A stretch of DNA of 62,575 nucleotides, the filler included. It is 23 parts of 23 records of this genome, joined end to end, with 100 filler letters (N's around TTAATTAATTAA, not from the genome) between each part and the next. Parts side by side here need not be neighbours in the genome. Positions count along the whole stretch, not along the records: positions 15,226 to 17,360 come from SRR36015645_248010; 22 more parts are not named here. One strand, given 5' to 3'. This document shows positions 6,471 through 47,170 of the stretch, one piece after another. The notes beneath the pieces are model-generated. The model saw only the letters and a program-made list of their open reading frames with translations, had not been told where the DNA came from and did not search any database. The translations under genes were made by a program, and so were the position numbers. Positions within the stretch are counted from its first letter, which is position 1. The number at the start of each line of letters is the position of its first letter.

Positions 6471-9192
6471 CGGATTCCACCTCATCTACTGAATGAAGTG
6501 CGGGACCATATAAAGGTAATGTTGGACCAAGGAATTATTAGAAAAAGCGTAAGTCCTTTTGCCAGTCCTGTTATTTTGTTGCGGAAAAAAGATGGGCGAT
6601 TGAGATTGGTTATTGATTTTCGTGCTGTAAATAGTCGGACTGTGAAATGTGCTTACCCTTTGGCACGTATAACCGAGTGTCTAGATAGCTTATTGGGCGC
6701 GTGTTACTTTGCTGTGATGGACCTCTCCCATGGCTATTATCAGGTAATAATGGATCCGGAGTCCATTCCAAAAACTGCCTTCAGATTGCCGATGGGTTTG
6801 TACGAACATGTCAGAATGGGGTTCGGATTAACTGGGGCTCCACAGACTTTTTCAAGGGTAATGGAAAATTGCTTAGGTGATTTACATATGCAGGGAATCA
6901 TCATATATTTAGACGATATTTTGACCTACAGTAAATCCCTGGAATCACATATTGGCATGCTAGATACAGTTTTTACACGCCTAGGTAACTACGGCCTAAA
7001 AGTCAAGGGCTCCAAATGTAAGTTTTTCCAACAATCTGTCACTTTTCTTGGTCACGAGGTAAGTGGCGAAGGTATAAGGTTGAGTGATGACAAAATTAAG
7101 CAGGTTGTGGACTGGCCTGTGCCTAAAACTGCCCGTGAGCTGCAATCTTTTCTGGGTCTGGCTTCTTACTGTAGACGTCATGTGAAACAGTTTGCACACA
7201 TGGTCAAACCTCTGACTGAATTATTGCCACCGTGTCGGAGGAAAGGTAAGAAAAGTGTGAAAGTGACCAGAAAATTTGCATGGAATGAGGAGGCACAGAC
7301 TGCCTTTGATGCTGTGAAGAAAGCTCTTAGTAGTGCACCGGTGTTGAAATATCCTGATTTAGCTAAGCCATTTATATTGGAAATAGATGGTTCTTTGCAA
7401 GGGTTAGGGGCATGCCTGTTGCAGGAGGATGCTGATAAAGTGGTTCATCCTGTAGCCTACGGGAGTCGCACTTTAAGAGGAGCGGAACGTAAGTATCCAG
7501 ACTACAGTTCCTTTAAAATCGAGTTGCTTGCATTGAAATGGGCGGTGACTGACAAATTCAGAGATTATCTCCTTGGGACAACTTTTACTGTATACACCGA
7601 TAATAACCCCCTGGTGTACATTAAGACAGCAAAGTTAGGTGCCTGTGAAATGCGTTGGGTTGCTCAATTGGCTAATTTTGACTTTGACCTTAAATATTTG
7701 CCTGGAATCAGGAACAGGGGGGCAGATGCACTTTCGAGACGTCCCTCAAGCAGTAATGATGAACCTGATGTTGCGGGTAAGGATGACGTGCAGACTCTTG
7801 GAACGTTGGAGGAAGTTCGACACTGTTTTCAAGTAAGTACGGAATCTACGTTGATTCCAAAAGTACCATTGGAGCCCGAGACAGTAGAAGACACTGAGTC
7901 TCAGGTAAGTATGTTGCCATCCTGGTCATCGGATGAATTGACAGAAATGCAGAAAAGAGATGCCACTGTAGGTAAGGTTTATAGGGCTATAGAACGTAAG
8001 GAAAAACTAAGCTTTGTTGAGCCGCGTACAGAGTTAGCTAAATTAATGAAGCATTGGGATAGACTAATTATAGTGGACGGATTATTGTGTAAACAAGTAA
8101 CAGGTAAATTTGGCGATAATTTACATCAAGTCATTATACCACAAGCTTTTAGACGCACAATCTTGCAAGAAATGCATGACAATTGGGGGCATCAGGGGCA
8201 AAAACGCACATACGAGTTATTAGTTCAGCGGTGTTACTGGCCCAGGATGCAACAGGATGTGAGTAGCTATATCGATAGTTGTTATTTATGTAAGTTAAGT
8301 AAGGCTCCTAATTTGACTGTACGAACGCCAATGAGACACTTAACAGCGACTAGGCCTTTAGAGTTAGTGTGTACAGATTTTCTGAAACTCGACAAAGGTA
8401 GGGGAGGTTATGAAGATGTTCTGATCGTTACTGATGTATATTCCAAGTTTTCACAGGCTTACTCATGCAGAGATCAAACGGCAATAACGGTTGCTAAATG
8501 TCTGAGGGATAATTTCATTGCCAAGTTTGGAATACCACTCAGATTACACTCCGATCAGGGAAGATGTTTTGAAAGTAAAGTGGTGAAAGAACTGTGTGCA
8601 TTATATGGAATTCAGAAAAGCCACACTACACCCTACCATCCACAAGGTAATTCGCAAAGTGAACGATTTAATAGAACACTAATTGGTCTGATTAAATCAA
8701 TGTACGAAGCAGAACGTAAGTACTGGCCGGAATTATTAGCACATTTAGTCTTCGTGTATAATACGACACCGCAAAGGTCAACTGGGGTCAGTCCGTATCT
8801 GTTGATGTTTGGTCGTCAGCCAGTGTTACCGGTAGATTTTCTCTTAGGTAAGACCAATTCTTTTGGGAGTGAGTTCGTGCAACAGAATGCATCCTTACTG
8901 GGCAAAGCTACTAGGTACGTAAAGCGCAATCAAGAAAAGTCAAATGATCGAAATAAGCAGAAACATGATAGGAAAGTCACAAGGTTTGACATAGAGGTAG
9001 GTATGCCAGTTCTGGTGAAAAGGGTTGCCTTTACAGGGAGGCATAAATTGATGGATTCGTATGTAGATCAGGGATTTACAGTTACCTGGGTGAATGATGC
9101 TAATGACGTGGTAAGTGTAAGACCTATATCTGGTGGGAAGGAACGAGTTGTTCACAAGAGTTTATTACGTAAGTTGCCTCCAGCATGGGAAG
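6471..9192 (+). mobile_element. pol: Ty3/Gypsy pol (RT, RNase H, integrase), partial
   Basis: SPFASP, IDFRAVN, YLDD; RNase H EIDGS...YTDNNPL...ADALSR; HDNWGHQG...CYLC; integrase CTDF...HSDQGRCFES...SERFNRTL. Frame is open from 6471. Confidence 0.95.
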
Positions 9193-9292: not shown

Positions 9293-10814
9293 TGTCAAAA
9301 TTTGTTGTGCTATTTGAGTTACTTTGTGGATTTGCTAGTTGGTGATAATGCTGTGTTAACACGTTTGGTTCTAAATTTAAAACTGACTTTGAAGATACAT
9401 GTACATGGTTACTGTCGGCTTTTTTAAGTAAAGCCCATACTTTTACAGAATTGTTGGCAACCTCTTTTCTCAAAATTCCTCTTTGTTTGGCTTTAAAGGT
9501 GCGTTTTTTCTTTTTAATAAATCTGTTATACTCTTTCTTGCGCTCGAAATACTCGTTTCTTAACTGAGAGTTGTTAATGCACGTTTTAAAATTTCTTAGC
9601 GATTTATTTAGTTTACGTTTCATGTCTCTACATTCAGAGTCAAACCACTCAGAGGTGTTTTTAACATGTGTAGTAGATTTGCATATATGAACTGGTTTCA
9701 TGCCTGCGGCATTTGCAGCTATAGTAATTGCATTGGTATATTCGGACACGTTTAAGTTTACATCGGTGCTAGAGTTTAGTGAGTTATTTAGCATATTTTG
9801 AACAAGATCTGACCTTAACATTTCGCAGTACGGTATTTTACAATCATTACTCCATAATAATTTTTTAGCTGTCTTATGAAAGTTATACGTTTTTGAATCA
9901 CTTTGGACATTGTACGGTGCGTTATGTTTATTACAAGTTAGAGTGCATATTAAAGCAGCATGATCTGAAAATAATGTAAGTGGACAAACTTCAAAATTAG
10001 AACAATATTTAAATAATTCCTGTGACAATATCATGTAGTCAACAACGCTATTGCCATTTGGTTGGAAACATGTGTACATACCCATATTGGTTACACTACC
10101 AATTCTACCATTGATTATACGACAATTTGTTTCCTGGCATAATTCTAGTAACAGTTTACCAAAACAATTAGTAGCTTTACTGTCACAGTTCACACGCTTT
10201 GGTAAATTTAAATCAAATTCGTACATATCCGGTACAGGTACAAAATTGTCTAAATCATATTTTATGTAGTCAAGTTGCACATTTGTTCTAGCATTAAAAT
10301 CTGATGCAATTAATACCGGGCCTTCTGTTATAAACTTCTGAATATCAGTTTTTAATAAACTCAACGTTTCTTTGCCCTTTTCGCTAGGTGATACATAGGC
10401 AAAACAACAATAAAGAGCTGAACTAAGCAGTGGCGGTGAAATTTTTAGCCAGACAATATCCGGAGTAGATTCTTGAATAACAGTAACAAACTTTGAAACA
10501 GACTTATGAATGCACACAGTGATGCCACCTGAATTTCGCTTTGCCTTTTTAGATTTTACCCTGTGTGTGTTATACAAGATAAAATTCTCAACACATAGAT
10601 TCACGTTTTTCGGTAGCCACGTTTCACACAGTCCAAAAATTTTGCACTTGCTAATAATATCAAGGAAGTTTTTCTCTCGGAACTTTTCGCCATTTTCTCC
10701 GTAACCGTGAATATTCCAAAATCCAATGTTTATGAATGCACAGTCGTCGTCGTTCGTGGGTCGCGGGTCACCGTCATCAAAGTCGTCTAGGTGCTGATGG
10801 CCACGGCCGTCATC
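9293..10814 (-). CDS. ORF2: LINE ORF2 (APE endonuclease and linker), RTE-X-like, 3' truncated; in frame with ORF1
   Basis: IGFWNIHG, GLCETW, RNSGGI, SDFNART, SVVDY, SDH. The frame is open right up to the ORF1 stop at 10815-10817. Clade call is tentative. Confidence 0.88.
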
Positions 10815-11800: not shown

Positions 11801-14659
11801 TTACACTAGAGCTTCCTTCAGCAGAGCATCAATGTCCGTATTGACATTGTCAACTGGTCTTAGTGTACTTTGTATCGATTCACGTAACTGAGACACAGTA
11901 AAGTTTTCAAATTTGTATTTGCCATCAGGATTTTTTACACGACGTTTCTGTCTTATGTTTGGGGCAACAGTTGACCGAAGATACGATATTTCTGACAGTA
12001 GTTGCTTCTCAGTTAATTGTTTAACCATGTCCATCGTATTTGGAGTGACCGGGCCACCATGCTTTTTGCATGTATCCAAGACATCCAAGGTTTTATGCAT
12101 TTTTCGCTGTTTCAACTGCTCCTTCTTTTTGAGCGATAACTGTTTTGCTATCTTCACAGTGGCTAAAAAGCTCTGTTCCAACCGTTTCACAGCTTTTACC
12201 ACTCCAGAGGTGCGTGCCCATTTCCAACTTGAGCGTTTCTCTGACTCGGACATTTCTAAGAATTCTTCATCCACAAGCAGGCTGTTTGTTGCTACAATGT
12301 TCTTTCTCGAGTGTGTTTTGATAGTGGTCATCCCTCCCGAGTACTTGACCCTGTTGTCAAGTTTGGCAAACTCACTTTCGCATCCTAGATTTGTCAGTGG
12401 TGCATATTGTAACTTTGTCTCATCCACTGTGGGTTCACCATCAACATCGCTATTATCAATTTCGAAGTATGACATCTGTGACAGCTGTCTTTTCAGAGTG
12501 TCAATTATCTCTTCCAATACTGCACTGTTCAGCTTTCCTTTTCCAGTTACAGTTTTACCAAAACTTTCTCGTAAGGTTTCCAGCTGTCTCAGTTTGTCAA
12601 CAAAAAAGTTTTTCACGCCAGCCCAGTTTCGATTAGGATTGGTTTCCTGGCTTTTATCGTCGATACCCAGTAGATCAATGATTGGGTAAATGATTAACTC
12701 CGACATTAGAGCGTAAACCTCTGAGCAGCACAGGAACCAGTCATTTTCCACAAACGTTGAAACTGCTAATACAAGTTTGTTTGAATGTACGTCCACCACT
12801 GCCTCGAAGAACTGCAAAATAGTTTCGCGCCGTTTCAGGTACTCTTTAGAGAGTTCAGCTATTCTTCCAAAGCGGTTTGACACAAAACCACGGAATCCTG
12901 AGTGCTCAAGATTGTTGGAGTCTAGCCAACATATGTATTCATTGTACAGAGAAACGGAGTTTGAGGCATGACTAGGAGATAACAGCTTTGCAATAGCTAT
13001 CAGTCCCAGGGTATGAATACTTGAAGACCATGATCCAAACACTTTGTCCCCTGCTGACACTTTGATAAGTTTTTGAACACCAATCTTCTGCTCAGTATCG
13101 CGGAACACTTTGTCTATGCTATGATCAATACCAAGTATAACATGGGCACTGCACTTCAATATTTTCTCATCATCAATGTTTAAAGTTTGTAGGAGCACCG
13201 AACAATCTGCTGCCCTATCAGTCATCCAGAAGTCAATCTGATTTTTAATTTCATCAAGTGTCATATCAGCTAGAACTGCAAGACATTTTAATTTGAATTC
13301 GTATGCCATTGCACCATCATGGCCTGAGTGGGAAATGTTTTCAGTGTATCCCGTGGTGAATGACTTACGCTCAGAACTTGGACCAGCGATTGTAATATGA
13401 TCAGTTTTAACATCATACAGTTTGTGACCAGCTGCTTTTGTAGTATCATCGAGACCAACTGTAATAATAGAGTCACCCTTATCTCGCAAATGTCTGGCCA
13501 CAAGTTCAAGGTTTAGATATGAAGCGTCCTCTAGCCATGTCGCAATACACTGTCGTGTTGGCATGACATATGTGAGATCTTTCGAAATACGCCGGCGCTT
13601 TCTTGTGCACTGCTTTGAAGTTAAGTCATTGTTTTCACCATTATCTTCATCATCACTCTGCTCGCTCAACTCCTCTTCAACATCATCATCTAGTATCCAC
13701 TGCTGTCCAAAAACAGTATTCGCAACTTGAACTACAATACCTCGTAGGTCATCGGGTGTCACCTTATATTCAGACTGACATTGAACGAGACATCGCATCA
13801 AAGATTCGTTTAGTGTTCGGAATCCGCTTCGAATCTTGACACTGGGAAATGTTTTTCCTTCTTGATTCGTAGACGTGTCTGTGACAGTGGAAGAAGATCT
13901 AGTGATGCGTTTGCTGGAAGTTGGAGTCGTAAACGGTGTGCTTGTGGCTGAAAACGAAGGATCAGACATTTCTACATCAGGCAAGTCTTCTTCTGCTAAA
14001 GCATCTCGCATTTGAGATTCGCTCAATTCTTTTTCCTGCATATGTACTTGCTCCATTTCGATTTTCTTTCCATCTAAAGATATATGTCTCGTCTCTTTCC
14101 TTTTCTGCTGTTTTGTCCAAGCACGTGGTACTGTTCTGGTACATGTTGCGACATAATTCCCATGACAATTGTCCTCGTAGAATGCAATGTCCTCTGAAGT
14201 CATTACGACTTTGAATTCAGACTCCAACTGCTTCTGATAGAGTGCATTCTTAGCTCGTATGTCATAGGCTCTGCGTGTCATTTTCTCATTGAATGCACTG
14301 GCTTTGTGATACCAGTTCTCACTTTTCTTCTTTGTTTTATTCCTCTCTGTCTTTCTCATTTCTCTGAACAATTCATAGTCTGCTTTAAGTTTTTTAGCCA
14401 CTGTTCGGGTCTCCATGGGGTAGACATTTTTATTAATCCAGTCTATTCTTAGTTCCTCTGCCACTATCAAACTTGCATCATCTCGACTCATGCTTTCCCT
14501 TCCTTTCTCAGGTTGACGACAGAGAGCTAACATTCGACCAATCACGAATTGTCCACACGGCAATTTTGATCGAGATACATATTCCTTCTCCTCGTGGTAT
14601 GTTTCGCCAAAAAGTTCCTTTTGCGATGTACTCCGAGCAGTCCTGGTATGGCAATCCAT
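11801..14659 (-). CDS. hAT-superfamily-like DDE transposase (hATm/hATw/hATx-type), intact 952 aa
   Basis: GLDDTT, WMTDRAAD, CSAH (CxxH), NRFG, TNLGCESEFAKLD; N-terminal LPCGQFVIG...WINKNVYP. Single ORF. Subgroup uncertain. Confidence 0.65.
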   Translation of the reverse strand: MDCHTRTARSTSQKELFGETYHEEKEYVSRSKLPCGQFVIGRMLALCRQPEKGRESMSRDDASLIVAEELRIDWINKNVYPMETRTVAKKLKADYELFREMRKTERNKTKKKSENWYHKASAFNEKMTRRAYDIRAKNALYQKQLESEFKVVMTSEDIAFYEDNCHGNYVATCTRTVPRAWTKQQKRKETRHISLDGKKIEMEQVHMQEKELSESQMRDALAEEDLPDVEMSDPSFSATSTPFTTPTSSKRITRSSSTVTDTSTNQEGKTFPSVKIRSGFRTLNESLMRCLVQCQSEYKVTPDDLRGIVVQVANTVFGQQWILDDDVEEELSEQSDDEDNGENNDLTSKQCTRKRRRISKDLTYVMPTRQCIATWLEDASYLNLELVARHLRDKGDSIITVGLDDTTKAAGHKLYDVKTDHITIAGPSSERKSFTTGYTENISHSGHDGAMAYEFKLKCLAVLADMTLDEIKNQIDFWMTDRAADCSVLLQTLNIDDEKILKCSAHVILGIDHSIDKVFRDTEQKIGVQKLIKVSAGDKVFGSWSSSIHTLGLIAIAKLLSPSHASNSVSLYNEYICWLDSNNLEHSGFRGFVSNRFGRIAELSKEYLKRRETILQFFEAVVDVHSNKLVLAVSTFVENDWFLCCSEVYALMSELIIYPIIDLLGIDDKSQETNPNRNWAGVKNFFVDKLRQLETLRESFGKTVTGKGKLNSAVLEEIIDTLKRQLSQMSYFEIDNSDVDGEPTVDETKLQYAPLTNLGCESEFAKLDNRVKYSGGMTTIKTHSRKNIVATNSLLVDEEFLEMSESEKRSSWKWARTSGVVKAVKRLEQSFLATVKIAKQLSLKKKEQLKQRKMHKTLDVLDTCKKHGGPVTPNTMDMVKQLTEKQLLSEISYLRSTVAPNIRQKRRVKNPDGKYKFENFTVSQLRESIQSTLRPVDNVNTDIDALLKEALV

Positions 14660-15075
14660 TGTTATTTCTTGTTGCTGAAGACGTTAAAATTCAATAATTC
14701 GGCAACCTAAAATAGTAAAGATAAATATTAAAATTTCATTCACGATGAGCTATAATAAAATACCTACATGTAATGTGATTACTTTAGAGATGACATAATA
14801 CGAAATAACTGAGGGGTATTGAGTCAACTCGTGGTAAATTGGGCATAGTTATTTCTAAGATTGTTTTTAATGAGACGATGCCTTTGCTTTGTGACACTTA
14901 TTGATAAGTCGCTGACATACGCGATTCCAGTATCAAAAATGGTGTTTTGTGACTCTACATCATCTGGACGTTAAAATACACCATTTTAAATGTCAGAATC
15001 GAGCTCAGCGACCCAGAAAACATACATGGGGACATATTACTTGCCATAGTTGGAACAAAATTAATATAGATGTCG

Positions 15076-15125: not shown

Positions 15126-15226
15126 NNNNNNNNNNNNNNNNNNNNNNNNNNNNNNNNNNNNNNNNNNNNTTAATTAATTAANNNNNNNNNNNNNNNNNNN
15201 NNNNNNNNNNNNNNNNNNNNNNNNNG

Positions 15227-17360
15227 GAAAAGACAGCCTTCATATGCAGTCAAGGTTTATTTCACTGGAATGTACTACCGCTGGGACCTATAAACGGGCC
15301 CGCAAGTTTCATGCGTCTTATGAACAAAGTACTCCAGCCAGAAATCGGCAGGTCCTGCTACGCATATCTCGATGATATTGTCATCTTTTCCAAATCAATC
15401 GAAGAGCATTTTGATGACATTGAGAGGGTTCTACTCTTACTCCGAAAGGCAGGGCTAACGGTGTCTCCAGTGAAGAGTCACTTTTGCTACCGGCGAGTGA
15501 AATACCTAGGACACATAATTTCGGATTGCGGAATTGAAGCTGATCCAAAAAAGGTGGATACAGTTCGAAACTATCCTACTCCAAGAAATATCAAAGAGTT
15601 GGAAAGATTTCTAGGCATGGTAAACTGGTTTAGGAGGTATATTCCAAATTGCTCCATTGTGATGGCGCCTCTAAATGACCTGAAGAAAAAGGATGCACGG
15701 ATAAAAAAGAACTGGAAGTGGGACGAGAAATGTGAAGAATCATTCCAGCTGCTGAAGGATGCTCTAGTTGGAACATGTGTTCTCGGGTATCCAGACTCTT
15801 CAAAACCATTCGAAATTTACACAGATGCCAGCGAAGTAGGTTTAGGAGCGCTGCTAACCCAACAACAGGAAGAACGACTGAGGGTTATCGAATATGGAAG
15901 TCGATCATTGTCTTCCGCAGAGAAAAACTACAGTGCCACAGAGAGAGAGTGTTTGGCGGTCATCTGGAGTTTAGAGAAATGGCGACATTATTTGGAAGGA
16001 CACTACAATGTAGTGTTTACGGATCACCAAGCTCTGTGTCACCTCTTTAAGCGAGTTAACATTTCTGCAAGACAAGCCCGATGGGTCTTGAGGATCCAAG
16101 ATTTCCGCTTTGTAGTTAAATACTACCCAGGGCAGAAGAATCTGGTCGCAGATGCATTATCTCGGATCCCAGTTGGACAAACTGATGTTGTTGGTATTGT
16201 AGAAATAGAAGAGAGATGTGCTTCCTCCAATTGTAGCATTGCAACTGCCACGGATCCAATACTTGACTGGGTTCAATGTGACGCATGTCAGGGATGGTTC
16301 CACATATTTTGTGAGGGAGTTACGGCAGATGAAGTAAAAGAAATGGATACATACAGTTGCACTAATTGTGGACCACAGCTGTGGGAACCAGAAAGGAAGG
16401 AAGCACCGAAACTTTCAAAGAAGATTATAATCGAAGAACAAGAGGAGGACCAAGAACTGCTAAGGATTCGGGAACGACTTCTGTTGGACCCGTTGGATAA
16501 TTCGTACTCAACGGATAATCTCCTGAAAGATGGGATGCTGTATAAGAAACTAAAGGGTGAATGGAGGATTGCTATACCAGACAACTTACGTCATTCAGTT
16601 GTCTTTCACCTCCATGACCTTCCTTCTGCAGGGCATTTTGGATGGAAGAAAACTTTAGACCGAGTGCAACGCACATTTGTTTTTCCTAAGATGACGGCCT
16701 ACATCCGGACATATGTAAAGAAATGCCAGCGTTGCCAGCAAATCAAACCCAAATACACCAAGCCAGAAGGTTACATGAAGGCATACACAGCAGACAACCC
16801 ATGGGAATTGGTAGGATATGACTTGATGGGCCCACTACCGAAGAGTCATTCAGGGCACCAATTTGTATTAGTCCTCATTGACTACTTTACAAAATTTGCG
16901 CTGATGTATCCTCTACGTCGTGCCAGAGGAAAAGATATTGCCATAGTGCTAGCCACTGAAGTGTTTAGTACTATAGGACCACCTGAAAAACTTCTGAGTG
17001 ATAATGGGCCAAACCTCACATCCAAGGTGGTGAAAGAAGTATGCACCAAATGGAACGTAGAACAGCTGTTCATTACTCCCTACCATCCTCAAGCAAACTG
17101 GACGGAAAGACTAAATAGGGATCTCAAAGCCATGCTCGCCACATATGTGGAAGGTGACCATCAAACATGGGATGTGAATCTCAGGGAATTTCAATTTGCC
17201 CACAACTCGGCTAAGCACCGTACCACCAACATGCCACCAGCTGAGCTGATGTTTGGTCGGCACTTTCATGGACCCGGCACCCTACCTGATGATGTTAACC
17301 TCAGGGATATAGACCATAAGGAGGATATAGTACAAGCACGCAGAGCACATCAAAAAGCAG
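15227..17360 (+). mobile_element. pol: Ty3/Gypsy pol (RT, RNase H, PHD finger, integrase), partial
   Basis: YLDD; YTDASEVGLGA...ERECLA...FTDH...ADALSR; PHD at 16217-16369; HDLPSAGHFG...CQRC; YDLMGP...SDNG...TERLNR. Confidence 0.95.
16217..16369 (+). other. PHD finger (C4HC3) inside Pol
   Basis: C-ASSN-C...DWVQ-C-DA-C-QGWF-H-IF-C...YS-C-TN-C. Confidence 0.9.
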
Positions 17361-17460
17361 NNNNNNNNNNNNNNNNNNNNNNNNNNNNNNNNNNNNNNNN
17401 NNNNTTAATTAATTAANNNNNNNNNNNNNNNNNNNNNNNNNNNNNNNNNNNNNNNNNNNN

Positions 17461-19754
17461 ATAATCACTCGACTTCACTCAGGAGTGATCTTCAAAAAAG
17501 TTGCAGACACAAGGCACGTTTCGGAAAGTATTCATTATCTGTTGAAACTGAAATTACCTTTTGGCCAGAGTGAATATGGTTCTCCACAGTTTGAATGTAA
17601 AAAGCAGGGTTTCCCCGCTTCGAACTATCTTTATAAATTCACATGCGCTATGCATACACAATCTAAATTAACATTTGAAACATTACAAAATTTGATGACG
17701 GATGCTATAGTCACTTTTAAAACTGAGTTGAAATCGAAATTTTTAATATTTAACAGAAAAAAACGCAATGATCTTCAACATTTTTTTAGATGGCTAATCG
17801 ATGCACCGAGTACAAATGACATTAACCAACTCCGAAAGAATATTAAGAATATCGCATTAGATCAGAAACAATTGTATAATACCTTTTTAAATACAACTAA
17901 ACAGTTGGTAGGAGTTGTGTCTTTTCAAAATAGTCAAATAGATAAAAATGTGCAAGCTATTTATAATAGCACAGTAGATATTCAGGAAATTGAGTTAAAC
18001 GTGGAAAAAATGTTCTTGAGTATTGAAACATGGGCAAAATTTACAGCCCAGATTCAAAGTAATTACACAACCCTCATATACCATCTGCAAACCTTAAACT
18101 TAGGTATAGATGACATATTTGAGGGTAGGCTCTCAACACATATATTACCGAAAAAAGTTTTGCAAATAGTTTTGAATGAAATATCCTCTCAGCTTAGAAA
18201 CTATGATCCAAAATTATTTATTATAGCCCAATTGAAGGATTTTTATCAAGGCCTAATTAACTTTCAACCATTTTATGAACACGATGATCAAAACCCAGTT
18301 ATAGAAATTCTGCTGAATATCCCCATTGCGAGACAAACTCCTCAGTATGAAATATTCCATATAAATACATTTCCGGTCCCAATTTACAGCAACGAAACAC
18401 ATTGTTCAATTATTAAAGGACTTCCAGAATATATAGCTTTTTCTAAAGATCGTGACTATTACTTCACATTAAATAGTCATCAATTTCGAAACTGTGAAAA
18501 TCGATTCTGTGCCAATCATATGATGCCACAGAAGATTGAACTTTCGAAATTATGTGTGATAGCGTTATTTTATAATGAAATTGAAAAAATCGAAAGCACA
18601 TGCGAATTTGAATTCAGTACATATAGCTTGCCAAAATACGTCTGGGAAATATCACCAAATATATATTTGTTATCTAACATTTCCAACATCATGGAGGTTT
18701 GTAATGGTACCAATTCAAAAACTTTTAAAAATGAACACCTTACAGTATTAAAGACACAATGTTTCTGCTTTTACGAATTAGATGACGTATTTTTCATTCA
18801 AGAAAAATATACGAATTGCCATCACATCAGTGAGGCAAAGCTACATCATTCATTTAACCTACCTGTGATGTCGTATTATTTTAATATCTCACAGGTAAAT
18901 GAAATACTCAAGTCACACGATTTTGAAAGACCTGTTACGATGAACATACCGCAAATCCGTATCAAATCCGAATATAGGCAAGGCCTCATTAAAGACCAGA
19001 AATTCGATTTGAACACTATTTTAGGCGCGGCCAAAAAAGGCCGACCTTTGTTTAATGAAAATATGGATTCTCAATTAACTATTTCAGCAGATACAACAAG
19101 CATTTCTGTTGATAATGTGGTTAGAATTTTGCCTTATCTCAACACAGTACTATTAGGCATCTTTATAATTTTGGTAATGATGCTATCTTGGAAATATAAA
19201 CACTTGATTCAAATTCTCGGTGCTATGCAAATTTCACAAAACTTACCACAGACTAGGGCTCAACTTTTTAATTATATGACCACAATGATAGCCCCGACAG
19301 GCCCCACACATTATTTATGCAATCTAGATACCCACTATTTAAATTTAGTACTATTTGCAATCCCAAGTATAATGGCTCTAGTAATTATTGCATATGCAAT
19401 TTGGAAAAAATATATGAATTTGAAACATACTGATACGATAGTTCAAATAAACTTTGTGGCCTGTGTAGGAAACATAACCCTAAATTTAGACCGAGTACCC
19501 CAGTGTCCCCAGAATATTAAATTAAATATTCTGAAATTTTACGATACACCGAGCATAATTAGGAAATACGGAATATATTATTTGATATTTGAAACAGCCG
19601 AAATCTATCTAAAGATCTCAGACAATTCCATAATTAAGTTGACAAAATCGATTCGACTTCCATTATTTTATAACCTACAACTTCATAACATTCTAAAACG
19701 CAATTACGTGATTGTTTTGCAATTGGAACATCGTAACCAAGTCTTTCAGCCAAT
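17461..19754 (+). CDS. env: Env-like class I fusion protein (errantivirus env / baculovirus F-like), open at both ends
   Basis: Furin site RKKR at 17755-17766, then a hydrophobic segment and heptads; F-like motifs GRLSTHILP, PVP, LPEYIA; Cys-rich ectodomain with N-glycosylation sequons; TM segments at ~19126-19191 and ~19339-19404. Confidence 0.8.
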
Positions 19755-24245: not shown

Positions 24246-24513
24246 GTAACATTTGTTATTATGGTTCAAGGAATGGATGGGCCTATTCAATAAAAATACA
24301 GTTTTTAACATGTATACCGTTAGTTTAGCAGCATAGCTTGGTAACTTTTTGTTGTTCTTGCGGCAAGTATCACTGTTTGAAATAATGTATTATGTCACAC
24401 ATGTATTTTTCGTTCCTTATAATTTCTTCTCTGTAACTCAGCTTCGTTCTGTAATCAATTTCCGTGCTTTACATAAGGGACAAATAACAACCAGTGCCTA
24501 ACTTTCTCTATAG
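24246..24513 (+). other. Probable 5' UTR intron of MEPCE
   Basis: Donor CAG|GTAAC at 24246; branch-like CCTAAC at 24497; pyrimidine tract and TAG acceptor ending 24513, 92 nt before the ATG. Confidence 0.6.
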
Positions 24514-24605
24514 GTTTTCGATCATTTGGCCCAGCTGCTGATATAACGAGAAAAGGATCTACAACAAAAGCTCACAATCTCGTGTACCAGAAGGATACGG
24601 GTACG

Positions 24606-26225
24606 ATGTCTACAGTGGAAATGAAGCATCCCCTGGAACCGAGCAGGCAGAAGAATGTGGAGGCTAAGAAAGCGTTCAAGCATAAGAGACTCCATCGGCC
24701 AGACATGGAGGCGTTAAGAATCGAAAGAACACCTCCGCAGCATTCGTTGAAACCGAGCAACAAGAGGCAGAGCTCAGACCAGGTTCCTGCTGCAGCCAAG
24801 GAACATCCGTTGAAAAGACGCAAGTCGGAACCCGAGCAAACTGTTCGTCGCATCGTTCTTCCAAAGAAGTTTTTACTTGGCGGTAACATTTCCGATCCGC
24901 TGAATCTGGGTAGTATGGAAGACGCCGACGTGAATAGACAGCTGAACGTACCGACGCCAGAAAAGTCTCCTGCTCCGATGACTCACCACATGGTTGAGAT
25001 ATTGATACCGCCGAACGTTATGGATCCGCTGCATCTAAACGACGACACTGCTGTTTTGTCGCCAAAATCAGTGGGTAAGAAGAGGAAGCTTAAGAAAAGA
25101 AAACTTACGGGCGTGCAAGAGTCTGTCGATGTTCCAGAGGAATCTGTGGCAAGTAAACCCGAGATGGTGGATACTACTTGCGTAATACCGGTAGCAGAAC
25201 ATACTGCAAACGAGGAAGCAGAAGTTGTGAGTCCTGTCAAAGAATCACCGCTGCCAATCTCACCAAGAAAACCACCATTAAAACGCTGGCGAAGCAATTC
25301 AGGTCGACATCAATCCGGTGGCAATGAGGACCAAAAGTCGCCAAAAATTGATCGAAAGCGGCAACCGTCTTTTACGGTTCCACAACAATTTCGTGCAAAA
25401 GATGCCAAATTCCAGTACGGCAATTACAATCGATACTACGGGTACAGGACGCCAGATAGTAACGACCCCAGACTTAAGTTGTTCAACGCTAGTTGGTTCA
25501 AAGGCAAAGACGTTTTGGATTTGGGCTGCAACGTTGGTTACCTGACACTCTCGATTGCAAAAGATTTCTCTCCTTGCAAAATCATCGGCATAGACATCGA
25601 TCCCAGTCTCATCAAATCCGCACGTAAAAACATTCGCCATTACTTATCGCCACAATCTATCACCGGTACAAAGTTTCCCATATCTCACATCATTAATTTC
25701 GGTCCAATTGCTGCACCACCTGTCAGTAAACAAGCCAGTGGTGGAACATTCCCATCAAATATTCAGTTTGTGCCAGGAAACTACGTGCTCGAGTGTGACG
25801 AAATGTTGGAAACGCAACGAGAAGAGTACGACACAATATTATGCCTTAGCCTGACAAAGTGGATACACTTAAACTGGGGCGACGCTGGTCTAAAGCGCAT
25901 GTTCAAACGGATTTACCGTCAGCTGCGTCCAGGTGGTCGCTTGGTGCTAGAAGCTCAGAGCTGGGCTTCATACAAGAAAAAGCGACGTCTCACGGAAACA
26001 ACCGCTAGCAACTATAACACAATCCAGCTGAAACCGGAACATTTTGTCGATTATCTACTGTCGTCCGACGTTGGTTTCTTGACAAGTGAAGTTATTGACG
26101 TGCCTCGCGCCAGAAGTGAAGGGTTTCATCGACCGATCCATTTGTTCACTAAGGGCAGCAGACACGTCCGTAGTCCGCCATCTGTTGAGCCTGCCACATC
26201 ACAGTCTTTTGCGAGCAGTAGTTGA
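24606..26225 (+). CDS. MEPCE: 7SK snRNA methylphosphate capping enzyme (Bin3 family), complete, intronless CDS
   Basis: FLLGGNISDPLNL, FQYGNYNRYYGYR, SAM motif VLDLGCNVG, GIDID, LCLSLTKWIHLNWGDAGLKRMF, LRPGGRLVLE, GFHRPI. ATG at 24606 (ACGATGT), stop TGA at 26223. Confidence 0.96.
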   Translation: MSTVEMKHPLEPSRQKNVEAKKAFKHKRLHRPDMEALRIERTPPQHSLKPSNKRQSSDQVPAAAKEHPLKRRKSEPEQTVRRIVLPKKFLLGGNISDPLNLGSMEDADVNRQLNVPTPEKSPAPMTHHMVEILIPPNVMDPLHLNDDTAVLSPKSVGKKRKLKKRKLTGVQESVDVPEESVASKPEMVDTTCVIPVAEHTANEEAEVVSPVKESPLPISPRKPPLKRWRSNSGRHQSGGNEDQKSPKIDRKRQPSFTVPQQFRAKDAKFQYGNYNRYYGYRTPDSNDPRLKLFNASWFKGKDVLDLGCNVGYLTLSIAKDFSPCKIIGIDIDPSLIKSARKNIRHYLSPQSITGTKFPISHIINFGPIAAPPVSKQASGGTFPSNIQFVPGNYVLECDEMLETQREEYDTILCLSLTKWIHLNWGDAGLKRMFKRIYRQLRPGGRLVLEAQSWASYKKKRRLTETTASNYNTIQLKPEHFVDYLLSSDVGFLTSEVIDVPRARSEGFHRPIHLFTKGSRHVRSPPSVEPATSQSFASSS

Positions 26226-32329: not shown

Positions 32330-35032
32330 AACTCCTCTCTCTTCGCATGGTTCGTCTTCATCCGAGGCTTCTGAGCTGTCCAAAGGGCGTTTTCTCTTCT
32401 CAGGTGGACCTTCCTCACCTGACCAATCAGGCATGTCTTTATTGGCAACAGCTGTAGACCTCAAATTTGCACCACCCTCTGGAGGAAACTGAGTGCAAGT
32501 ATACCAAATTGGTACGATGGTTTTTTGTTCAGTTACTCTCCATCCGAATTCCTCACCAACGGATGGATATACAATCTCCCTCTGTAGACATTGCCACCAA
32601 ATATAACACTGCAAGGCAGATCTTCTTATGTGTTGTTCTACGCTGTTCTCGTCAGGTATAATTGCTTCACTAGACTTTGTTTTTTGCTTGGCATACATAC
32701 GCACGCGAGTTTGAACTAGGGTTTCGTTTTGCTGTCCAGAGTACATTATGCACTTGACAAACTCTTTTGCAGAGATCATTTCCTCCTCACGAAGTCTTCC
32801 ACGTCCAAAATTTGATAGCAGGTTGAATGCTTCTGTTTTAATCATTTTCTTGAATGGTTTGTTCTTGCCAACCCCATAGGGGAACGATGTCGTGTCACAT
32901 CCAGTTATGCTGTGAAAAGCTGGCAGGACGCTGCATACATCGGAGCCAAACTTTCCACAAACCTTTGAAATGTCAACAAATTTTTTGTGTCCAATCATCA
33001 TTTGCCATTGATGCTCACATCCCTTTGAGTAAGTATACGTCATTAGTAGCAAAACATCGGTATCTGTTGCTCTGATTATCACTGGCAAGTTAACATTACT
33101 GGCAGTATAGATGAGCCTTGTATCCGCTTCTAAGTGATTACAGTCTTCTAATTCAAGAATGTCTGTGTTTGTTAACAGCCAGGACTTCTCATTCTGCGTT
33201 ATCATTAGAGGCATTGTGATCAAGTCCTTGTTCCCTTTGACGAAAGCAACAATGAAGCTAATTAGTTCTGACTTGTTGTCCGAATTATTTAAAAATTCGT
33301 CCCAGTCTTTACCTTTGGGCATACTTTGTTGACTGCTGGAAATGTACACCCTTTTGCCTGGGCTGCCTCTCCGTAGGTGCGTAAGCTCTTTGACATAAGG
33401 CTTTGTGTAAGTGTCGAAAATGATACCCATTTTTAGTGGATGTAAATCATTGCTTGGCGTACAAAATCGGAGTAAGGCCTCTGCATATTCTCCCCACGTC
33501 TCCTTCCGCGGTACAGATCGTACGGCAGCCATTCCATCAACCAACCACATGGCTCTAAAAGCGGGCTCATCTGACAAGGCACTTGACTCTTCAATTAGGA
33601 AATTTCTTAACGTAGCCTTTGCTCCTTGTCTCAAATCGCCGTCTGGTGATGACAATGCCAGAGGCACACTCGTCAGCGGATGCGCCAGAGCTACTTCTGG
33701 TGATGTCACCCTGCTCATCATGGATCCAAAAGCTTGTCTGTCCTCTTTTAGACCAGAAATTAACTTAGACACTTTCTTTGGTTTTTCCAATCCTGTTTTA
33801 AGTTTTGGATTCCGTATGCTTGCGAAAATACTCATCTTTTTCTCACCCGATGCCTTCAACCTTTGATTGACAAATTCTTCGTACATCTCATTCCCAATTG
33901 TGTTTGATGAAAGCAGTCCCTCAACAGTGGATGCATCAATTTCTACTCCTGTTTTGAAATTTCTTGCCGGACCATCCAGGAAAGGGTCAAAATAATTGGT
34001 CAGTTGATTTGTAAGCGTTACTACCATTTCTTCATGAATTTTTTTTGCTCCACTTGTCGTTTCCCTGTGACTGGATTCCGAAAGTACGTTTAGTCTTTCT
34101 CTCAGCTTGCATCTTACCTTTGCAACAAGGTGACTTGTCTTTACAAATGTGTCACTGGCTCTTTCATCTGTGCTAAAACCGCCATGCATTGGACCACCAC
34201 GCACCTTAACTTCTCTGTTGATTGTAGTCTCTGTAATAAGGTCGCCGTGTATTGTGGAGAAGGGTTTACCCGACAGAGATCCACCAAATCCTTTCTTGAC
34301 TAGGTCATCCCAAATTTTCTGCTCTGAAGCCTTTATATGTAATAACCTCACATGTTGATATGTCAAGTAGCGTGCGTAATTAGGATGTCCAAATCCAAAG
34401 CATTTGGGAATTAATACTCTTTCTGCCGCAAGATGTCTTTCAATACTGTGTTCCCTCACAGCACTTATTAGACACAGCATAGAAGAAACATCTCGGATAT
34501 ATTCAGCAATCATTTGAGTTTGTGTTCCAGTTGTGACGAGCAACGTTTGAACCACTTCCTTAAAGCCTGCGTTCTGCAACACGGCGTTGAGTGATTCTTC
34601 TGATGGCCTCAGTCTGAGATTACCTATCTTTTCCTTTAAAGTTGGATCCATCTTCTCCTGAACAGACAGTTCCAATATTCTGTGTCGTAGCAGTGCTTCA
34701 AAGGATTGCTTATGGAGTCGAATACAACGATGATAATGTCGGCCTTCCATGGCTTGATCTGCTGAACCCTGTGCAACAGCCCCTGACTCAATCCACCAAG
34801 TCTTCAATCCTAGGCATCCGTATTTTTTCCCTAGAATTTTAAGATTTACAAGGATGGTATGAAAACCACCCATGAGGGGGATTAGCTTATCATACTTCCC
34901 GTTGTGCAACCACGAAATGACCAACATTTTAGAGTTTATCGCCTCGTCTGCATGAACGAATGCAAAATCAACCTCAAGATCATCAAGCATTTGTAATATG
35001 CCATCCATATACCATTTTATTACATTGTCATT
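32330..35032 (-). mobile_element. AcademX-type transposase with XPG/PIN-like nuclease domain, partial
   Basis: Transposase: ADEAI, MGGFH, GRHY, YARY, DLITETTIN. XPG-like: VDGMA, FDTY, HLEADTRL, DTDV, HSITGCDTTS..GVGK. Confidence 0.8.
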
Positions 35033-40042: not shown

Positions 40043-40290
40043 NNNNNNNNNNNNNNNNNNNNNNNNNNNNNNNNNNNNNNNNNNNNTTAATTAATTAANN
40101 NNNNNNNNNNNNNNNNNNNNNNNNNNNNNNNNNNNNNNNNNNCCACTCTTATGGTTTTTGAGCTATACGCCTATGTCCTATTGCTTAATCGTGTATAAAC
40201 TTTGACCCCCCACCACCACCACGTAGTGTAGTATATACCATTCACTGTTTTGTTTTCAGCCTTTGAGTTGAATCAACGCAGACAACAAAC

Positions 40291-42996
40291 ATGGAGAGGA
40301 CAAGGGCATCAAAAGCTAAAGTAAATCAGCTTACTGGCGGCAGTGTTTGTCAATGCGTTATCCATGATATATTAGTGGCAGATAGTACGCCCGGTTCTAA
40401 AAACTTCTTGCGAAAAATCGGCAACAAGTTTAAAGATACGAGTAAAATGGTTATACAGACAGCAATTACAAATCACATTCTGTTTGACACATCCAAGTAC
40501 ATTTGTGATTCGTGTTACCAACATATTAAGAAAAAGTATGGGCAACACACAAATACAGTTGAGTCGAAAAATGCTCCCAAAGTAGAACCAATAGATATCG
40601 ATACCCATGATGACGAAACAACACATCCAGCTGACTTTGATGATCATGGTCAGTCCACAGATATACCTAACATGCCTACAACGCCCATAGCTGAGCCTGA
40701 CATTTCCGAAACATGTACTGATCTGAATAAGTTGGAAACAGTTTTAGATGAAATGATTCGTGACATTAAAGAAAATAAAAACTGTGATACGAGCAGCATT
40801 AGTAACAAGATAATTGAGGTCGCTGGTTATTTGCTAAAGCAGAAGCTTTCTAGTGAAGTGAATCGACTCGAAACAAAGTTCAAGAGCAAGGATTTTTTAA
40901 GTAATTTAGATGCTGCACAGTACATCAATTGTTTTGATAACCAGATTGTGAACTTCTGCAAGTGTTTAATGTCTACACCAAATATTTGCACAAATGACTT
41001 GAAAACATATGGAGTAGCAAAACTTCTCGAGCAAATGATGTATTTGGTTGACTCACGTTTTGTCGGGCCAGTCACATTTCGAGAAACGTTAATATGCTAT
41101 CTTCTTAGCGGTAGCAAAACTGCTTTAACCATTTCTTGTGCAGGCACTTCTGCTGGTAGCTGGTGGTCCGTTAGAAAATGGATAGAGGACAATGCTGTTA
41201 CAACAAGTTTTCCTTGTAAAGATCTTGTTATTGTCATAGATAACAATCAGGTTGTTGGTAAAACATACCACTTACAACACCAACGAACTGGCTTACCTGT
41301 GTCTGTGGTGTGCAGCGTTATATCATTTCCGGTGTCACCCACCATACGGTACCAAACCGCAAACTTGGTAGAAATCGATTTAACGGCAGATGTTGCTCAC
41401 ACACTAGTGCAGGCATACATGCAGAAAACATCGACATACTTCAGAAATGTTCGTAAGCTGTATGTCGCACAAACAATTAACATTGTAAAACAAGAATTAG
41501 GTGCTACAATGTTGGACTATCTTGACATGCCAATGCGTAATGTAGATGAGCCGACATTTAAAAAGTCCAAAATAGAGGAGACATACAATTTAGCACAAGG
41601 CGATGCAATCAAATTACGACCACTAATCCATGATCCGTATAACATTGATCCATCCTCTCATGATGCGTGCTCAAAAATTATAAATAGTTTGCACGATAAA
41701 TTAATTGCAACAGGTGAGGATAGAAAGTGGTTTGAGCTTGTAGCAGATGGTAGGCCTTATGTTCTGATCATGGATCTGATGCAAGAATCACCTGAAATAA
41801 AAGAATGGTTGCTACTGAAGCCTGGGTGGGGTCACTACCACCATACAATGATACGCTCCATATTTAAATATGTGTGGCCAATATTTGGACAAAAGTTTGC
41901 TGCTGATATGAGCTTTAAGACAGAAAAGGCTCAGCAGTACTTTAAGAAAGCAAGTGACCACCACAAGGCTGACGAGAGCATAGACACTTTGCTGGATGGT
42001 AATGCTCGAGAGATTGTCCGCCTTTTTGTACTCTATTGCAATGACAGCAGTATGGATCCCACGGTGGTAAACTTTGAACTATGGTGTGGCAGTGTGGAAA
42101 ATGTCACATTACAGTTATATATAGACATAACATTTACGGCGCTGCTAGCCATTCGGCTCCTAAAACATGGAGTGCGACATAATGATACCACTGCTATTGC
42201 CGCTGCTCGGGTGAAGTTTGCACCAATGTTTTTTGTAATGAACAATGTACATTACCAAAAAATTGAATGTCATTACACTGCTCAATACCTGAAATCCTCA
42301 GAAGAGGTTAAATCATTCCTTGGTGATTTTGAATCTTTCACAACCAATCTCTCAAACAGAGGTGAAGGTGCTGACTACCAAATTGAAGTGGTGCACAAAC
42401 AGCTCAAGAGCCTCATATCGAGTGGTGTACCAATGTTTGACAAATGGGTTCGACTATATCGAGCCCTTTCTAATATTGACCAAGTCAAATCTGCTCTCCT
42501 AAATGAGATACCACTTGAAATATCGGCTACACTTGATAACATAATGCATAACTCACTAGACGAAGAAATTTGTTTGTGGCGTAAAACACTGCGCGAATCA
42601 AAGTGCTTGGAGAGTAACACGCAAAATGTGTTCGGTCACAACGGGGCTGTTTTAAGCGAGGACTGTTTGAATGCGTTTATGATAGGCCATGATCGCTTTG
42701 TGAAGTCGCTCAATGCGGCAGTAGTAGACGGCAAAATCAAAACGTTCAATTCCATATCACTAACAGCTGATGAAGTTCAAAACAGTGCCAACTTAGAAAC
42801 ATGGTTGAAGGCTGACCTCACAACAGAAGCGAACAAACTTATATCTAAGCTGCGTGGACGTGATAAGCCAAAATATTCCGGATATCTTAGAAAGGCAACT
42901 ACTAAGAATAAGCTCATTGAGCTTGTCGACAGCTTATCACACCTGGTCAATGACAATGGAGAGGAAAGTGAAGAAAGTGAAGATGAAGAACTATAG
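40291..42996 (+). CDS. Academ-like DDE transposase, complete 901 aa, no XPG domain
   Basis: VIDNNQ...ADGRPY...PGWGH...SDHHK...VRHND...GEGADYQIE..HK parallels the DN / D / GxxH / DxxxE layout of the AcademX proteins in this window. A TTTTCAG acceptor ends at 40259, just upstream of the ATG. Confidence 0.6.
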   Translation: MERTRASKAKVNQLTGGSVCQCVIHDILVADSTPGSKNFLRKIGNKFKDTSKMVIQTAITNHILFDTSKYICDSCYQHIKKKYGQHTNTVESKNAPKVEPIDIDTHDDETTHPADFDDHGQSTDIPNMPTTPIAEPDISETCTDLNKLETVLDEMIRDIKENKNCDTSSISNKIIEVAGYLLKQKLSSEVNRLETKFKSKDFLSNLDAAQYINCFDNQIVNFCKCLMSTPNICTNDLKTYGVAKLLEQMMYLVDSRFVGPVTFRETLICYLLSGSKTALTISCAGTSAGSWWSVRKWIEDNAVTTSFPCKDLVIVIDNNQVVGKTYHLQHQRTGLPVSVVCSVISFPVSPTIRYQTANLVEIDLTADVAHTLVQAYMQKTSTYFRNVRKLYVAQTINIVKQELGATMLDYLDMPMRNVDEPTFKKSKIEETYNLAQGDAIKLRPLIHDPYNIDPSSHDACSKIINSLHDKLIATGEDRKWFELVADGRPYVLIMDLMQESPEIKEWLLLKPGWGHYHHTMIRSIFKYVWPIFGQKFAADMSFKTEKAQQYFKKASDHHKADESIDTLLDGNAREIVRLFVLYCNDSSMDPTVVNFELWCGSVENVTLQLYIDITFTALLAIRLLKHGVRHNDTTAIAAARVKFAPMFFVMNNVHYQKIECHYTAQYLKSSEEVKSFLGDFESFTTNLSNRGEGADYQIEVVHKQLKSLISSGVPMFDKWVRLYRALSNIDQVKSALLNEIPLEISATLDNIMHNSLDEEICLWRKTLRESKCLESNTQNVFGHNGAVLSEDCLNAFMIGHDRFVKSLNAAVVDGKIKTFNSISLTADEVQNSANLETWLKADLTTEANKLISKLRGRDKPKYSGYLRKATTKNKLIELVDSLSHLVNDNGEESEESEDEEL

Positions 42997-46929: not shown

Positions 46930-47170
46930 TGTCAATAGTCTTGCATGATCATACCAATCTCTGAAAAAAAGCAAAAGTAATAATTATGTTATTTGATGCA
47001 ACAAATATACAAAGGAAGAGTGTAGTTGGGTCTAGAACCTCAATCTCGTGACCATTCTCTGGCTAAGATGTTTTGACAGTTGATTTGACTTCCTTGGACC
47101 TTTTGTAAAAAAAATTAGCCCCCCGGCCCCTCCCAAAAATCCCGGCATTTTTTTCTAGCGGGCCAAATCC

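Follow-up and report, generated by a model that had tools for sequence, protein, structure and literature searches.

A Ty3/Gypsy Pol fragment with an in-frame PHD finger

The window, meaning the whole stretch of 62,575 bases analysed here, is split by 22 artificial spacers of the form N44-TTAATTAATTAA-N44 into 23 contigs, each 2.0-3.8 kb long. A single long ORF takes up most of these contigs, and the majority of such ORFs are mobile-element fragments (Bel/Pao, Gypsy, LINE, and pogo-like DDE). We focused on a contig of 2135 bases in which a single frame, starting at 15227, is open from end to end and codes for 711 residues (P0001). Because the 23 contigs are unrelated and joined by artificial spacers, the sequence on either side of this contig says nothing about it. 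The features of the contig and its borders are listed below.

15126-15225 and 17361-17460: artificial spacers on either side of the contig
15226..17360, + strand: Ty3/Gypsy Pol fragment truncated at both ends (spacer-bounded contig, one open frame)
15233..15520, + strand: C-terminal part of the reverse transcriptase (RT; Pfam RVT_1, residues 3-98)
15365-15376, + strand: YLDD, the RT YxDD motif (residues 47-50)
15719..16105, + strand: RNase H (Pfam RT_RNaseH_2/RT_RNaseH, residues 165-293; RT_RNaseH at 190-293)
16148-16165, + strand: ADALSR motif, after RNase H
16166..16216, + strand: 17-residue linker from ADALSR to the PHD finger, low confidence in the AlphaFold2 model
16217..16369, + strand: C4HC3 PHD finger (residues 331-381; Pfam PHD, PF00628, at 336-381)
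16268-16270 and 16295-16297, + strand: candidate cage Trp codons in the PHD finger
16370..16573, + strand: short low-confidence linker, then helices towards the integrase zinc domain (EQxxDxxL motif at 16433-16462)
16574..16750, + strand: Integrase_H2C2 zinc-binding domain, HHCC (Pfam, residues 450-508; H..H and C..C at 461-504)
16844..17089, + strand: integrase catalytic core (Pfam rve, residues 540-621)
16820-16822, 17000-17002, and 17105-17107, + strand: candidate D,D35E residues D532, D592, and E627 (motif, spacing 35)

The contig encodes part of the Pol of an LTR retrotransposon of the Ty3/Gypsy (Metaviridae) group. It has the Metaviridae order of RT, RNase H, and integrase, with the YxDD motif of RT and, for integrase, the HHCC motif and a candidate D,D35E triad. 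The contig begins inside the RT, since the RVT_1 match spans profile positions 92-205 only. Truncation at both ends places the LTRs, gag, protease, and the integrase C-terminus outside the fragment.

A preliminary description of this DNA had placed an intact PHD finger in frame between RNase H and integrase, flanked by ADALSR and the H2C2 domain. We found the C4HC3 pattern at exactly the positions claimed and the Pfam match within it, with ADALSR upstream and H2C2 following. The Pfam score of the finger is 27.4 bits against a gathering cut-off of 24 (E 3.4e-6). The same description noted a plain linker in a second Gypsy Pol (6471-9191), and there we found no Cys-rich module between ADALSR and H2C2. 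Spacers separate the two Pols, which are thus on unrelated contigs. When the stretch was searched by tblastn with three PHD-carrying relatives described below (P0160, P0002, and P0004), only the contig at 15226-17360 matched at 41-44% identity; for the two other Gypsy contigs, identity was about 30%.

Several other ORFs in the window were recorded. A Bin3-type methyltransferase lies at 24477-26222. The 764-residue frame at 17461-19752 (+) is open over its entire contig and gave no Pfam match even at E 0.05, and ORFs of 960 and 507 residues at 11804-14683 (-) and 9294-10814 (-) had no credible Pfam match. Four large ORFs on separate contigs match DUF6589 (44014-46983 (-), 57537-59471 (-), 32330-35032 (-), and 40267-42993 (+)), two at about the gathering score and two weakly; they may form a multi-copy family in this assembly.

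Distribution and phylogeny of PHD-carrying Pols

We searched 1.84 billion representatives exhaustively with HMMER, using residues 300-520 as the query. The search returned 7080 matches at E<=1e-3 and 159 at E<=1e-10, and the top matches align over the whole query in one stretch. A Pfam scan of the best 27 matches identified 14 proteins with a PHD upstream of Integrase_H2C2 and, where RT_RNaseH is present, downstream of it; the PHDs of two of these (P0011 and P0013) fall just under the Pfam cut-off. The other 13 of the 27 comprise one short fragment with an RNase H end and a PHD, one host-like multi-PHD protein, and 11 proteins without a PHD. With the further carriers P0160 and P0300-P0303, at least 19 other cluster representatives have a PHD at the same junction. 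The lineage core W..CD.C..W[FY]H..C occurs in 15 among the 150 matches listed. The host-like P0039 (1601 aa) joins an ORC3 N-terminal domain to five PHD fingers and ranked high through its PHDs alone.

Other searches returned less. A word-indexed homologue search with residues 300-470, confined to near lengths, found nothing; we attribute this to a sensitivity miss, because the exhaustive HMMER search then found the family. A profile search with the PHD-region alignment at longer lengths was dominated by ordinary Gypsy Pols, with PF00628 in 2 of 111 and the known long carriers missed. Searching the ESM Atlas produced only generic Integrase_H2C2 clusters with scores below 0.8.

The contig is short, truncated at both ends, and part of a fragmented assembly. 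These properties would fit an assembly chimera, or the recent accidental capture of a host exon by a single dead copy in which the finger has no function. The frame, however, is continuous across all domains, and the at least 19 other representatives come from independent assemblies, place the PHD at the same position, and in some cases are only 30-40% identical. Recurrence at one junction, together with the single well-supported clade described below (SH-aLRT 98), contradicts this explanation; we rejected it and consider it extremely improbable.

Three of the carriers belong to named species, two to Holothuria leucospilota and one to Patiria miniata, both echinoderms. Nine relatives are full-length (1405-1700 residues) and extend the architecture beyond the truncated contig. 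They contain gag-type zinc knuckles (zf-CCHC) and/or a SCAN-like capsid, together with an aspartic protease, RT, RNase H, PHD, and integrase. Eight of the nine end in SH3_Tf2-1 and/or Integrase_p58_C, and P0160 has neither. Pfam listed no chromodomain (PF00385) for any of them (P0002, P0004, P0007, P0013, P0025, P0160, P0300, P0301, and P0302). The P0160 cluster has 13 members, including five full-length copies of 1466 residues (found among P0273, P0274, P0281, P0282, and others). These five copies lie on different contigs, differ from one another by 0-10 residues, and retain intact PHD ligands. Near-identity among full-length copies with intact ligands points to recent activity of the P0160 family.

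We built trees from the Pol region homologous to the window's Pol after removing the PHD and linker columns. Rows were colinear matches covering most of the query, and partial carriers (P0011, P0012, P0014, P0016, and similar) were left out. A FastTree analysis of 121 rows (120 other proteins) grouped the seven full-coverage carriers with a support of 0.89 and placed P0167 as their sister with a support of 0.99. After P0300-P0303 were added, an IQ-TREE analysis (LG+G4, 55 rows, 560 columns) united all 11 full-coverage carriers in one clade with the SH-aLRT value given above. P0167, which has no PHD, was again the sister of this clade (support 99). The preliminary description had suggested that the carriers might be a lineage of their own, and their monophyly on a Pol tree free of PHD columns bears this out. 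The objection that sister copies might lack the finger is refuted by the lineage of their own that the carriers form on this tree. We conclude that the best explanation of these sequence data is a distinct lineage that gained a PHD resembling the third PHD of KDM5 proteins (see below) once and has probably kept it under constraint.

One further protein has a PHD at this junction. P0239 (JGI protein, 1109 aa) contains a PHD at 600-644, between RNase H (435-540) and H2C2 (738-792). It is placed elsewhere on the tree, and its PHD is of another subtype, with a C-x2-C first pair and no Trp pair. Its position and subtype suggest an independent gain, so that the RNase H/integrase junction would have been used at least twice.

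Some Pols without a PHD matched the query non-colinearly, with the integrase before the RT (P0171, P0177, P0179, P0182, P0188, P0190, P0203, and P0204). All but P0203 have a SCAN-like gag (PF02023), and two are named fish proteins. Their arrangement fits the Gmr1-like domain order that Goodwin and Poulter reportedly set out in 2002.

Subtype and predicted structure of the PHD finger

We compared the finger to PHDs of known structure. A phmmer search of PDB chains with the single PHD sequence ranked PHF2 first (E 1.6e-8), and KDM5A PHD3 scored E 2.1e-7. A profile built from the lineage matched KDM5B PHD3 (2ma5, E 3.6e-14) and KDM5A PHD3 (2kgg, E 4.7e-14) best, and only these two aligned with the full 49-position profile, its unusual C-x4-C first pair included. 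Next in the profile ranking came BPTF, ALFIN-like, CFP1, EBS/SHL, PHF2/PHF8, TAF3, DIDO, and Spp1, and we take these PHDs to be H3K4me readers. Several of the matched PDB entries are H3K4me2/3 complexes by title. By its title, however, the PHF2 entry 7m10, also among the matches, has a VRK1 peptide bound, which is not a histone peptide; specificity is therefore not fixed by resemblance to H3K4me3 readers.

Conservation within the lineage follows both the zinc ligands and the aromatic residues. Across 16 aligned PHDs (31-43% identity to the window's), C1, C6, W18, C21, C24, H29, C32, C48, and C51 are invariant; these positions comprise all eight zinc ligands together with the first Trp. At least 90% of the 16 also retain W27 and D22. 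The second Trp is replaced by Tyr in P0016, and the short fragment P0020 is without the last Cys pair. In both the phmmer and the lineage-profile alignments, the two Trp residues of the window's finger align with, and are identical to, Trp residues of KDM5A PHD3. The K4me3 cleft of that domain is formed by W1625/W1635, according to the portion of the source available to us (PMC9172573). The Trp of the C..WFH motif had been proposed as the cage residue of H3K4me3-reading PHDs; it aligns as expected, and the second cage Trp is present as well. By sequence, the finger thus has the aromatic residues of the H3K4me3-reading subclass that includes KDM5A/B PHD3, BPTF, PHF2/8, and TAF3.

An AlphaFold2 model of residues 300-520 was generated from a 17-row alignment (mean pLDDT 80.8, with both PHD-flanking linkers at low confidence). 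The modelled finger superimposes on 2kgg with a target-normalised TM of 0.75 (rmsd 2.0 over 52 columns, 40% identity) and on 5y20 with a TM of 0.76, and the segment is predicted to adopt a PHD fold. In the same model, the helices after the PHD, taken together with H2C2, align with Ty3 integrase as it is in its intasome (7q5b), with PFV integrase, and with the N-terminal domain of MLV integrase. The match of this part to integrase N-terminal regions indicates that the PHD sits directly before the N-terminal region of the integrase. Foldseek E-values for the two-domain model were all above 1e-3.

KDM5A and KDM5B PHD3 (2kgg, 3gl6, and 2ma5) are the best-fitting small folds for the finger. The likeness extends to the C-x4-C pair, the DWVQCD...C..WFH core, and both cleft Trp residues. 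The KDM5 fingers differ in being domains of host demethylases rather than of a transposon, and they are about 40% identical to the window's PHD. Capture of the finger from a host KDM5-like gene is a lead that this likeness offers.

A zinc-binding fold need not read histones. The PHD might instead serve as a spacer or fold that Pol processing or the assembly of the intasome requires, or its ligand might be nucleic acid or a host protein. The fold matches bring to mind the N-terminal extension domains of retroviral and Ty3 integrases, whose roles are structural or in DNA contact, and 7m10 illustrates that PHD fingers can bind non-histone peptides. Against such a role, conservation reaches beyond the zinc ligands to both aromatic cleft positions, the best matches form a coherent set of presumed H3K4me readers, and neither the PHD-less sister P0167 nor most Gypsy Pols have any module at this place. 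We consider a role unconnected with histones quite unlikely. Judged by its sequence, the finger is genuine, conserved, and of the H3K4me3-reader type.

A possible chromatin tether and its relation to known systems

Our preferred reading, to which we give an even chance, is that the PHD binds H3K4me3/me2, remains part of the integrase or of an uncleaved Pol, and anchors integration at H3K4-methylated chromatin. The finger would bind the K4-methylated H3 tail through its two-Trp cleft, like KDM5A PHD3. Carried by the integrase, or by Pol left uncleaved in the pre-integration complex, it would hold the intasome at H3K4-methylated nucleosomes, so that insertion would be biased. Such a tether would parallel the chromovirus chromodomain for H3K9me. 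After protease processing, the PHD could also end up on RT-RNase H rather than on the integrase.

The same conservation and reader-like features would fit a finger that reads a histone tail and was selected for something other than the choice of target site. It might keep Pol or the pre-integration complex attached to chromatin, or disrupt host silencing or transcription at the element's own copies. The available text of Grau-Bove et al. raises the possibility that captured readers help to evade host suppression (bioRxiv 10.1101/2021.11.30.470311), and that of Craig et al. names chromatin remodelling as a possible role of transposable-element PHDs (PMC9940879). On the other side, a tether would be expected to lie just where this finger does, directly before the N-terminal region of the integrase, and the one characterised analogue that these papers cite, the MAGGY chromodomain, targets H3K9me regions (Gao et al. 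2008, as cited in the part of bioRxiv 10.1101/2021.11.30.470311 available). Gao et al. reportedly fused that chromodomain to the Tf1 integrase in Schizosaccharomyces pombe. We find a purely non-targeting role unlikely. A separate consideration bears on the tethering reading itself. In the accessible text of Grau-Bove et al., the cost of insertion at active promoters is the argument for the rarity of Bromo fusions (bioRxiv 10.1101/2021.11.30.470311). Insertion of a PHD-carrying element at such promoters could be similarly costly, which counts against tethering.

A broader version of the tethering reading is put forward tentatively. An animal Gypsy clade, with echinoderms as its named members, may have captured a KDM5-type PHD3 reader of H3K4me3 as a self-encoded tether to H3K4me3 promoter nucleosomes, and the RNase H/integrase junction may have been taken independently by a different PHD subtype in P0239, and in Chlamydomonas. 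If so, chromatin readers would dock preferentially at this junction. A retrotransposon has few means of selecting where it lands without the help of a host adaptor, and encoding its own chromatin reader is one of them. With its conserved KDM5-PHD3-like finger, this monophyletic clade of animal Gypsy elements would offer a clean natural test of H3K4me-steered integration, with the PHD-less sister family as control. That a PHD was apparently gained there a second time hints that the places where readers can be added to Pol follow a structural rule.

The placement of the finger is not new in general. The preliminary description was right about the Gypsy Pol, the PHD, the predicted cage Trp, and the separate lineage, but its suspicion that the placement was undescribed finds no support. 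According to the parts of the article available, Gypsy-7a_cRei from Chlamydomonas reinhardtii has a Gag-Pol with the domains GAG, PROT, RT, RH, PHD, and INT, and targeted insertion is discussed there (Craig et al. 2022, Plant Cell, PMC9940879; preprint 10.1101/2022.06.16.496473). This element is a Gypsy LTR element with the same RH-PHD-INT order as the window's Pol, a comparison made by published domain order only. Gypsy-7a_cRei is green-algal, whereas the present clade is associated with animals and carries a KDM5-PHD3-like finger.

Fusions of PHDs to retrotransposons have also been surveyed across eukaryotes. As far as the available text goes, Grau-Bove et al. found in 172 genomes that PHD and Chromo are the commonest chromatin readers fused to retrotransposon RT or integrase, and reported that cnidarian retrotransposons carry PYGO-like, H3K4me-reading PHDs, with chromatin tethering as the rationale (bioRxiv 10.1101/2021.11.30.470311). 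These are likewise animal retrotransposons with an H3K4me-reading PHD, a property that is predicted in the window's case. They differ in subtype, which the text gives as PYGO-like, and in their cnidarian hosts. The main text of that survey does not mention KDM5, echinoderms, or Strongylocentrotus; its supplementary tables may list the present family.

In our full-text literature search, which did not extend to the architectures in Repbase, Dfam, and InterPro, neither this animal clade nor any Gypsy Pol with a KDM5-PHD3-like finger was found described. The passages available from PMC6875170, 10.64898/2026.05.21.726589, PMC6338049, and PMC13524379 contain no relevant mention of a PHD. A mosquito LTR paper was considered as a precedent and rejected, as the 'phd finger protein' there is only a gene neighbouring an insertion. 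This animal lineage therefore appears to be undescribed in the literature searched. Since the general idea has been published before, the lineage is of value as a well-defined test case and not for any new principle.

PHDs are also found in CR1, Jockey ORF1, Chlamys Penelope-like elements, Rehavkus, and REM1, which is another transposable element with a PHD finger, but these belong to other element classes and hold the finger at other positions. The Chlamys, CR1, and Rehavkus fingers were noted by Craig et al. (2021), and de Mendoza et al. described many retrotransposons as encoding a PHD. Mobile elements thus acquire the PHD repeatedly as an accessory domain (see also PMC4120745), among them CR1 non-LTR elements, Jockey ORF1, and Rehavkus DNA transposons.

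Chromoviruses such as MAGGY, in which a chromodomain on the integrase directs integration (as cited by de Mendoza et al. and in the available part of bioRxiv 10.1101/2021.11.30.470311), are likewise Gypsy Pols that encode their own reader of histone methyl-lysine and carry it on the integrase. In their case a C-terminal chromodomain recognizes H3K9me, whereas the window's reader is a PHD before the integrase N-terminus with predicted recognition of H3K4me. Pfam listed no PF00385 match for the nine full-length relatives, on which this comparison was judged since the window's contig ends before the integrase C-terminus. If the PHD does act as a tether, it would be a built-in counterpart of retroviral host-factor tethering and a mirror image of the chromovirus H3K9me strategy.
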